From: Eledone cirrhosa
Taxonomy: Eukaryota
Reading direction: 5' to 3'
Length of the DNA stretch: 64,000 nt
NCBI GenBank assembly: GCA_964016885.1
Contig: OZ024760.1
Coordinates: forward strand, 6,014,001 to 6,078,000
Shown here one piece after another: positions 42,635 through 44,642 of the stretch. The notes under the pieces were generated by a model. The model was not told the origin of the DNA, did not search any database, and was given only the letters and a program-made list of their open reading frames with translations. Made by a program: the position numbers and the translations under genes. Numbering within the stretch: position 1 is the first letter of the stretch; each line of letters opens with the position of its first letter.

Positions 42635-42820
42635 AGTTTTAATATAGATGAGATTCTACAGGACTAGAACTGTTTCATTCTTTAGAAATCATCAATGATT
42701 TCTAAAGAATGAAACAGTTCTAGGTCCTGTAGAATCTCATCTATATTAAAACTTTTATACTCTGCTTTGTATTGAGTACCTTACTTACTGTGGTTACCTC
42801 CGATTCAACCCGGAATAACA
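42635..42820. mobile_element. Fold-back hammerhead-like element family B (also 44286-44399; unfolded or rearranged copies at 14717-14850 and 12751-12866)
   Basis: ~58-bp arms around a 2-nt CA loop; one strand reads UUGAUGA-U-UUC(UAAA)GAA-U-GAAA-CAG(UUCUAGUC)CUG-UA. Confidence 0.75.
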
Positions 42821-42822
42821 TA

Positions 42823-42824
<2 letters not shown>

Positions 42825-42857
<33 letters not shown>

Positions 42858-44253
42858 ACGTTTAACGTCCGTGTTCCACGCTTGCATGGGTTTGGACGGG
42901 GGTTTTCTCACTTGAGGCAAGAGTGATTATCTTGCTCGCATAGGACTGTCTGGCGGGTTTTCTACAGCTGGATGCCCTTCCTAACACCAACCACATTTAC
43001 AGTGTGGGGCTGGGAGGTTTTTACCGTGTTGCCTACACGGCCACATTACAGCGTGGACTGTCTGGTGGGTTTTCTACAGCTGGATGCCCTTCCTAACACC
43101 AACCACATTTACAGTGTGGGTCTGGGAGGTTTTTACCGTGTTGCCTACACGGCCACATTACAGCATGGACTGTGTGTTTTTTTTTTACGTGACACCTACA
43201 CGATCTCATTTGTTTCGGCCTGGATGGCGCGGCACCAACATAACTTTACATAGAACGGGGTGGTGTGGATGGGGTGGGGGTGGTGGGACGGGGGTGTATT
43301 TTGTTAGAGATGCCTACTGACTGTAGTAGGTTTTACTTTGTATTTAGGCAAGGCGGGTCTTCTCTATTACTGAGTACCGCCAAAGGTCTCGGTCCAGTGA
43401 CATTGTCTTGGTGAGGTGTAAGTGTGTGAGGTCGGAATTTATCAGCTCGTCCCAGGTTTTTCTGGGTCTGCCTACTCCGTGGCTACCGTCTATCTTTATT
43501 GCCCTGCACTTTGTTATACAGCTATCGTCCTTCATGCGCATCACGTGACCTTACCAACGTAGCCTTCTCTCGAGTAAACAACATCTGATCCCTCTTATTT
43601 CTAATTTTTTCCTTAGTCCGTTTATGCTTTGCCGTTCACGTATATTACTATTACACATCCAGCGGAGCATGCAAGCTTCGTTTCTCTCTAGTCTGCGTAT
43701 ATCCTCTGCACACAATGCCCAGGTCTCACTGCCATGCAACATTGCTGTTCGTATGCAGGCATCGTACAACCTGCCTTTCATTTTTAGGGAGAACCCTTTA
43801 GCGGCTAATAGTGGTATAAGCTCTCTGAACTTTTTCCATCCAGTTCTGACTCTAGCTACTGTACTTTCAGAGCACCCTCCCCCACTGCTGATTTTGTCAC
43901 CCAGGTAACGGAAGCTGTCCACTATTTCTATAGAACCCTCTGCGCAGTTGAAAGAGCTAGTATTCTGTGGGCACTTGCTGCTACTTATTGCACCAGAGCA
44001 CCGGCCACATGTAAAATCTATGTTCTTAGTTAGCTTACCTGTGATCCCACTACATCTTTTATGCACCCATACTTTGCATTTGGGACACAAAATGGAGTTT
44101 CTACCTACGCCTTTCCTACACACTGAGCATGGCCACTTCCCGGAAGGGACCGCCGCCTTATTTTCTTTCTTACAAACTAGAACTTTAGTCTTAGCCAGGT
44201 TAATTTTAAGGCCTTTTGATTCTAGGCCGTGCTTCCATGTTTGGAATTTCTTC
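42825..44253 (-). mobile_element. RTE LINE family RTE-b, 5'-truncated, disrupted (in-frame stop at 43551), long 3' UTR, (GAT)n tail
   Basis: ORF pieces 43551-44123 and 43344-43544 homologous to the RTE-a C-terminus (WVHKRC, FRYLG, HGSETW, GRPRKTW); 3' end GGACGTTAAACG(TGA)n. Confidence 0.92.
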
Positions 44254-44642
44254 TAATATCTATATATATATATATATATATATACTTTTAATATAGATGA
44301 GATTCTACAGGACTAGAACTGTTTCATTCTTTAGAAATCATCAATGATTTCTAAAGAATGAAACAGTTCTAGTCCTGTAGAATCTCATCTATATTAAAAC
44401 TATATATATATATATATATATCATGGTCCAGGTTAGTCAAAAAATTTTTCCTGTGTTCAGTCTTTTTCGTCGCTATGGTCACTGCGGCCCTTTTATCGGT
44501 CGCTGTCTTCAATTTGCAAAGCTGTCTAAACGTAATGTTATAACTCTAGGGTTATATACCCTATTGAGTGCTTAGCTGCACACCGAAACTGCATCCATTA
44601 GCTTGGCTACAACCATGGCTTCGTTGATGCTGTACTAAATTT

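Follow-up and report, generated by a model that had tools for sequence, protein, structure and literature searches.

Introduction

Among the described hammerhead ribozyme motifs of Penelope-like elements (PLEs), those of the Hydra clade come closest to the sequences considered here. In the part of Craig et al. (2021; PMC8557442, File S2) on which we draw, Hydra motifs combine CUGAUGA-U with a helix II of 3-4 bp, a 4-nt loop and U-GAA (e.g., Penelope-9_HM and other HM elements), the helix III of Hydra-1_aMil, Penelope-1_NV and Penelope-1_SK reads ACAG..CUGU-A, and several motifs lack the G10.1-C11.1 pair. The same part of that source places the insertions of the clade in (TA)n and records a member from O. 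bimaculoides. A helix III that favors the dimer has likewise been published for PLE hammerheads. At the level of whole insertions, an inverted 5'-truncated copy combined with a tail on one side is standard in PLEs, and palindromes are found at the inverted junction too. Purified PLE protein can nick AT-rich DNA on both strands and extend each of them; it works on uncut RNA, initiates at two internal RNA sites, by which the tail is defined, and is predicted to act as a dimer. PLE hammerheads that stand alone or in pairs on opposite strands, inverted ends, tails, and a preference for (TA)n have all been described before. The tiny insertions reported below bear on how the inverted ends and tails of PLEs arise and on the role of the hammerhead, in that they reduce this event to its ends.

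The window, by which we mean the whole 64-kb stretch of octopus DNA that was analyzed, is microsatellite-rich eukaryotic DNA. It holds four loci of a family, B, with the build (C)UGAUGA-U-helix II-U-GAAA-CAG..CUG-UA, alongside two further families, A and C, which carry half of a hammerhead (Table 1). We argue, with a probability of about 0.68, that family B is the non-coding 3' end, a shortened type I hammerhead with its tail, of a Hydra-clade PLE inserted by TPRT into (TA)n, with two cDNAs joined head to head.

Table 1. Features of the 64-kb window (positions are those of the window; "." marks features given without a strand)
Feature	Position	Strand	Description
Family A fold-back copy beside B1 (A42)	42424..42612	+	Half hammerhead and the same tail hairpin
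B1 hairpin	42636..42752		Both arms and loop
B1 inverted arm	42636..42692	-	UGAUGA (counting the loop), helix II, GAAA, helix III; predicted cut 42657
B1 head-to-head junction	42693..42694	.	CA loop, within the hammerhead core box
B1 direct arm	42695..42752	+	Begins AUGA; predicted cut after 42731; loop III with one extra G
B1 3' tail	42753..42822	+	70 nt; bulged hairpin at 42759-42779
LINE fragment, 5'-truncated	42823..~44260	-	(CAT)n end at 42823
Spacer, LINE 5' end to B2	44261..44284	.	(TA)12
B2	44285..44400	.	Hairpin without tail; junction and loop orientation as in B1; (TA)n on both flanks
LINE frame, 797 aa open	45814-48204	-	RVT_1, then PHD finger; interrupted in its upstream portion by a long microsatellite
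B12	12733..12868	.	Hammerhead part inverted (minus, to ~12790), joined to direct tail (from ~12797)
B14	14721..14852	+	One-armed family B copy; core variant CUAAUGA; loop II CUUC; complete tail
Other family A fold-back copies (A12, A15, A49)	12515-12730, 15183-15375, 49600-49792	-	Half hammerhead and tail hairpin
Family C	14895..14956	-	Sole copy in the window; GAAA, 4-bp helix III, GGCGCC palindromic loop, GUC site
Orphan tail fragment	15027..15103	-	Bulged hairpin at 15068-15090, compensated G-C form

Family B copies as probable hammerhead remnants

A preliminary description of this DNA, made from the letters of the sequence, had grouped B1, B2, and the one-armed copy B14 in one family; this grouping stands, with the addition of a fourth copy, B12, that had been overlooked. 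B12 and B14 form a second subfamily, which shares the loop II CUUC and is 77% identical to B1. In B12, about 17 nt are lost between the inverted and direct parts, an arrangement reminiscent of twin priming. The earlier letter-by-letter reading of the minus strand of B1 and B2, and that of B14, agree with ours. Only the box given as UUGAUGA has to be divided: UGAUGA does belong to the inverted arm, but the leading U is the complement of the first base of the other arm, and the tail-bearing strand of B1 reads UCAAUGA at the junction. On the inverted arm the sequence extends to U4 (UGAUGA), A6 is the first base of the direct arm, and B14 supplies C3 but has an A at position 5. There is no exact match to an intact CUGANGA box in family B, B14 having CUAAUGA and the inverted arms of B1 and B2 being clipped at position 3; the canonical CUGAUGA exists in no single copy and has to be pieced together from B14 and the inverted arm of B1. 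An alternative parse, in which the native core ends in ..AAUGA, may also apply.

Helix II of the family comprises 3 bp (UUC/GAA), followed by GAAA and with a U on each side. As first proposed, this stem is kept and its loop is changed, all four loop bases being different between the subfamilies. Helix III is ACAG/CUGU, with a CUAG palindrome in its 8-nt loop and a GUA cut site, and favors the dimer (-14.2 kcal/mol versus -2.1 for the monomer). The G10.1-C11.1 closing pair is absent, with U opposite U and then U-A in its place. Helix I amounts to 0 bp in B1 and B2 and 1 bp in B14, and its 5' strand falls outside every copy. A relaxed hammerhead descriptor, which permits one mismatch in CUGANGA and does not require helix I, finds three matches in the window, all of them in family B, against a null rate of 14.7 per Mb per strand, equivalent to 0.004 per 150 nt on both strands or about one per unmasked window. 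The descriptor alone is therefore modest evidence, and the stronger evidence for a hammerhead comes from comparison with the Hydra-clade table. At the gathering score, Rfam has no match in the whole window. In scans ranked by E-value, HH10 reached 17.7 bits against a gathering score of 75 (E 3.2), and a second scan returned no hammerhead row; generic miRNA-hairpin matches in these scans lay far under gathering, reflected shape only, and were rejected.

The suggestion of a hammerhead-like core is supported by the descriptor and by the Hydra-clade layout, whereas a pairing helix I is found in no copy, one of the conditions that the preliminary description had set for its own refutation. Covariation of stems II and III, the lack of which was another such condition, is not seen in the window either, a result that is uninformative rather than negative: across 5 distinct rows each of the 7 pairs in the two helices is invariant, which leaves no covariation to score. 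The probability of the helix II and III pairs is 0.000 in B1 and B2, where they compete with a hairpin of about -86 kcal/mol, and 0.05-0.12 in B14; the folded copies are thus predicted by the folding model to be unable to form the ribozyme or to cleave themselves. The family B copies are hammerhead remnants and not members of an active family. A 22-mer from family B and a 26-mer from family A had no exact match in bacterial and archaeal genome contigs.

Two hairpins with one junction

The hairpins B1 and B2 have arms of 56-57 bp and a loop of 2 nt. That each turns in a CA loop inside ATCAAT/ATTGAT was borne out, and the arms, which in B2 are perfect over 56 bp (44286-44341 and 44344-44399), lie far above the longest perfect arm in simulated sequence (13 bp in 40 sequences of 38 kb). 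The inverted arm of B1 runs 21 nt beyond its predicted cut before stopping in (TA)n. Over about 118 positions the two hairpins show 2 differences, one terminal base and one indel. The right end of B2 is the reverse complement of the left end of B1, and the B1-B2 block begins and ends, within (TA)n, in exact inverted repeats. The two do not bracket the intervening LINE symmetrically: B1 has its tail on the LINE side and B2 has none. The junction is identical in B1 and B2, whereas the four family A junctions differ, which points to a single fold-back event and its later copying, not to two separate events. A rolling-hairpin origin of B2 from B1 was rejected, as the loop would be flipped. Elsewhere in the window, a further hairpin with arms of about 40 bp and a loop of 12 nt is found at 2052-2141, beside a dispersed repeat, and has no half-hammerhead match.

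A start point shared by three families

The 3' half of the hammerhead, GAAA-C..(U + palindrome)..G-UH, is common to family B, to the four loci of family A, all of which are folded, and to family C, which has neither core box nor tail. Such half-hammerheads match 17 times in the window, where a null of 9.3 per Mb per strand leads one to expect 0.7; 15 of these matches fall in A, B, or C, and the remaining two are both strands of one chance-like site at 25762. The helix III regions of all three families favor the dimer. Family A yields no CUGANGA even at up to two mismatches, and it turns 11-18 nt upstream of GAAA. When measured from the predicted cut, all 15 arms (6 from B, 8 from A, and 1 from C, representing 8-9 insertion events) begin 33-46 nt upstream, if a local duplication of 11 nt in one A arm is set aside. 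BLAST within the window found no copy that extends beyond this start. In family B the shortness of helix II puts the start in the core box. The A and C starts, 11-24 nt before GAAA and with no core box left, are probably in helix or loop II. The fold-back points of A and B had been equated as one structural position located at the UGAUGA box. The distance from the cut is indeed similar in both, but the structure differs, the turn being inside the core box in B and in the helix II region in A. The 3' end points also recur, with tail-less arms ending at +8 to +21 from the predicted cut, in many cases where an internal AT runs into (TA)n, and tailed arms at about +90 to +97.

Some junctions of family A display peculiarities of their own. 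A15 and A49 have the same 6-nt loop (15315-15320 and 49732-49737) in opposite orientation relative to their tails, which could reflect either spacer flipping or differing arm lengths from one native 5' end. The hairpin loop of A12 (12660-12670) is an 11-nt local duplication of arm sequence, which suggests template switching at the turn. The A arms and family C (at 14956) both start with AGTC, which family B does not clearly share; AGTC resembles the downstream half of the initiator consensus.

A bulged hairpin in the 3' tail

Families A and B had been described as largely unlike, and over the hammerhead this is true, but a tail motif is common to all seven of their tails (null 0.17 per Mb). 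The motif folds as ACUC-stem-loop-stem-NN-GAGU-AC. A strict descriptor of this hairpin finds 6 matches where 0.15 are expected, namely five of the seven A and B tails plus the orphan tail fragment. Across 8 rows, four of the eight pairs are changed on both sides, a number reached by 7 of 500 shuffles, with all four two-sided changes coming from the orphan tail, which was itself chosen for pairing. RNAalifold returned no consensus pairs for the seven A and B tails, their alignment being out of register. A covariance model recovers its 8 training sequences and one weak match at 44763-44792 (E 0.11), and nothing else. In PMC8557442 the same hairpin can be made out by eye downstream of the hammerhead in Hydra-2_Amil and in Hydra-2_Ajap, with a less exact form in Hydra-1_Crog; the other three of the six Hydra consensus sequences there end too early or display part of it only. 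The bases after the orphan-tail hairpin resemble, again by eye, the end of Hydra-2_Ajap. In the unique sequence on either side of the A42-B1-LINE-B2 block, two short stretches, at 42389-42401 (13 nt) and 44423-44434 (about 8+4 nt), match the family A tail, probably by chance (E 0.14).

Microsatellite setting

All copies lie in microsatellite, mostly (TA)n, which flanks B1 on the left, B2 on both sides, B12 on the left, and B14 on the right; their other ends abut CA-type repeats or the LINE. Eight of the ten fragments have a neighbor within 400 nt (P=0.007 against random TA blocks, a crude null). Three pile-ups of PLE-like fragments (12515-12868, 14721-15375, and 42424-44400) are separated internally by microsatellite alone, and each family B locus shares its cluster with a family A copy. 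Upstream of the first two, at 11317-11640 (+), is a CARD-domain exon. The one named match among its three, at 92% identity, is a protein of Octopus vulgaris with the automatic name ZO-1-like, which makes an octopus the likely host; the clusters at 12-15 kb may be intronic to the gene of this exon.

Discussion

Origin and proposed mechanism

Taken together, the published features of the Hydra motifs correspond to the layout of family B, in a match made by eye against the motif table and for that part of the motif which is present. In the same table, the hammerhead of Hydra-1_Obim differs from those of B, A, and C, and the B and A motifs are not found in the supplement of PMC8557442. B1 and all four family A copies exhibit the PLE arrangement of an inverted 5'-truncated copy with a one-sided tail, although the tail in the window is about 70 nt as against 30-40 bp in the literature. 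Pfam detects no PLE RT or GIY-YIG frame in 237 of the 268 complex window frames of at least 50 aa, the other 31 being those that overlap LINE copies and tandem repeats; hence the parent element is not linked to family B. A likeness of the B antisense arm to one Naiad 3' region, seen by eye in one place, was treated as chance because the arm and tail motifs are on the same strand there and on opposite strands in B14.

We propose that an element-encoded RT/GIY-YIG protein, not present in the window, would bind the tail hairpin, nick both (TA)n strands, and begin copying an uncut RNA from two internal sites. The tailed arm would come from the outer of these sites and the tail-less arm from the inner one. 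The two cDNAs would stop 33-46 nt upstream of the cut, near the core, and would then be joined head to head; the stop might be caused by the 5' end of the RNA, by a pause at the folded ribozyme, or by masters that were already short. Because the cut site lies within the arms, the template must have been uncut or re-ligated. Twin-primed insertion of this kind is the account we favor, and B12 fits it best, as the same event with cDNAs that do not overlap; B14 would be a one-armed outcome. B2 is likely to be a second, tail-less B unit that was present in, or arrived at, the (TA)n run after the B1 tail.

The main rival explanation keeps the same origin and replaces the joining of two cDNAs by a snap-back, in which the end of a cDNA or antisense RNA folds and primes itself, or by re-insertion of an already folded short master as a hairpin mini-element. 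Self-priming is the published reading of palindromic PLE junctions, and either version of this rival would explain the common junction of B1 and B2. The rival would also suit the flipped loop of A15 and A49, and masters that were already short would be expected to have a uniform 5' end. However, the inverted and direct parts of B12 do not overlap, the one-armed copies (B14 and C) begin at about the same point as the folded ones, and family B possesses no native stem at the turn from which priming could proceed. Self-priming or a folded master is a possible though less likely course of events.

A more general proposal can be offered tentatively. Octopus Hydra-clade PLEs might possess a strong stop at a fixed point some 40 nt before the cut, at which several unrelated families shed cDNAs of 60-130 nt that become perfect hairpins in (TA)n and may spread as mini-elements. 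The bulged stem-loop of the tail might have been retained, through compensatory changes, in elements of corals, sea cucumbers, and octopus alike, and might be the signal recognized by the RT. We consider this wider scheme speculative and, as a whole, doubtful.

The LINE between the hairpins and the remaining alternatives

The preliminary description had placed an RTE insertion between the hairpins, and a 5'-truncated LINE fragment, which we take to be RTE or RTE-like, is indeed there. It contains a 233-aa frame with a PHD finger and is 67% identical in nucleotides to the RVT_1-bearing frame downstream of B2; exact look-up of both LINE frames in a sequence collection gave no match. The LINE 3' UTR holds a 112-nt unit, which is doubled at 42943-43176 and expanded elsewhere into tandem arrays (3384-4288, about 8 units; 53244-54799; and 61369-61927), with related 130-nt and 48-nt arrays. 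No target-site duplication of more than 3 nt is seen around the fragment, at most ATA being common to both sides. The idea that B1 and B2 arose as an RTE-associated duplication fails in its plain form, that of a target-site duplication, since the B1 tail, which lies next to the (CAT)n end, is missing at the LINE 5' side, B2 being without a tail. Nor is a LINE-linked duplication needed, because fragments pile up in shared microsatellites without any LINE. The LINE likely landed independently in the same (TA)n run, the simplest history being B1-tail-(TA)n-B2 plus LINE, and its bracketing is probably incidental.

A more elaborate version has the LINE insertion create B2 through a long staggered cut or template jump that duplicated (TA)n-B1, after which the tail looped out and was lost. 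This would account for B1 and B2 being direct repeats with the same loop orientation and only 2 differences, for the right end of B2 mirroring the left end of B1, as repair of a hairpin would give, and for the B1/B2 divergence being below the 5.5% between the LINE and its sister (P=0.043). Yet the tail bases that such a duplication should repeat next to the (CAT)n end are absent, and a stagger of about 190 nt plus a deletion would be required. Moreover, two of three other LINE ends of the same type lie directly in (TA)n with no B element, and a tail followed by a tail-less unit occurs also at 14895-15103 with no LINE. We judge it unlikely that the LINE made B2.

It is improbable that family B is instead a MITE or fold-back DNA element, or a SINE, with a hammerhead likeness that arose by chance. 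B2 by itself does resemble terminal inverted repeats in TA, and a relaxed-descriptor match is expected about once per window. But B14 and B12 are not symmetrical, the tail of B1 is one-sided, and terminal inverted repeats are not present on every copy; further, three families carry the half-hammerhead, and the match to the Hydra motif spans two separate elements. The reverse strand of the B tail end resembles a tRNA B box. ARAGORN found no tRNA in the window, and the tRNA-SINE reading, for which only the B-box likeness remained, was dropped.

Even less credence attaches to a reading of B1 and B2 as paired pLTRs that brought in the LINE fragment by PLE-mediated capture. Foreign DNA between solo pLTRs is reported in Adineta vaga, and the inverted-repeat outer ends of the B1-B2 block would fit, but the downstream unit should then be direct and unfolded, the tail should sit at the outer end, and the LINE ends are ordinary ((CAT)n and 5' truncation). 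It is scarcely credible that fold-back reads, or misjoins in microsatellite, produced the hairpins or the B1/B2 pair as artefacts of assembly: PLE inverted structures are known to trouble assemblies, and all units are bounded by microsatellites, but six hairpins in two families turn at family-specific points, their arms have private differences, and B2 differs in structure from B1.

Implications

The insertions, as ends joined head to head, yield three coordinates relative to the ribozyme, namely a 5' stop, an inner start, and an outer start, together with a candidate recognition hairpin. The fixed stop point and the tail hairpin are the leads worth following. A search of the literature, with the variants of Lunse et al. 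2017 outside its scope, yielded no description of the tail hairpin, nor of a common stop point within the hammerhead. Likewise, nothing was found on these octopus families or on fold-back half-hammerheads in cephalopods, Repbase and Dfam being outside that search. The folded copies, if transcribed, would give long, perfect double-stranded RNA, and the presence of ten such fragments in 64 kb suggests a large source of perfect double-stranded RNA of 55-60 bp. Octopuses belong to an animal group known for heavy A-to-I editing.

Comparison with known systems

In the twin priming of LINE-1, the 5' part of a copy is inverted and the 3' part direct, with a short loss at the joint. B12 is alike in all three respects. 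In B1, B2, and family A, unlike LINE-1, one and the same stretch is present in both arms, and this calls for two templates or for recopying. We found no literature that applies LINE-1 twin priming to PLEs.

The non-LTR retrozymes (bioRxiv 10.64898/2026.07.22.740005) are, like family B, non-coding, PLE-derived, and of the type I hammerhead; they form direct tandem units, each a complete ribozyme, whereas the units of family B are inverted or single, dispersed, and incomplete. The Penelope pLTRs of Adineta vaga (Arkhipova et al. 2013, PMC3846280) share with it the head-to-head inversion, the palindrome at the junction, the optional tail on one copy, and the AT-rich targets. However, these pLTRs flank a reading frame and have palindromes of 18-38 bp, whereas in family B the palindrome and tail are the entire insertion; the word 'hammerhead' does not occur in that paper. 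The minimal PLE hammerheads (Cervera and de la Pena 2014, PMC4209133) agree with family B in the type I layout, the extra base after A9, a palindromic loop III suited to a dimer, dispersed truncated copies, and opposite-strand pairs. Those motifs are complete and 100-700 bp apart, while the arms of family B are incomplete, abut at the core, and have no G10.1-C11.1 pair.

The ends of Hydra-clade PLEs (Craig et al. 2021, PMC8557442) differ from family B in that the latter has no coding sequence, a clipped core box, and no helix I, and in loop III, which is 8 nt with a CUAG palindrome in family B and 1-3 nt in the Hydra clade. Against these differences stand the short helix II flanked by U, the ACAG/CUGU helix III, and the A at the cut, along with the (TA)n target, the presence in octopus, and an inverted 5'-truncated copy (Penelope-13_HM). 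The likeness extends to the tail, with a GCUC..GAGCAC bulged hairpin located, by eye, 38-47 nt past the cut in three of the six new consensus ends.
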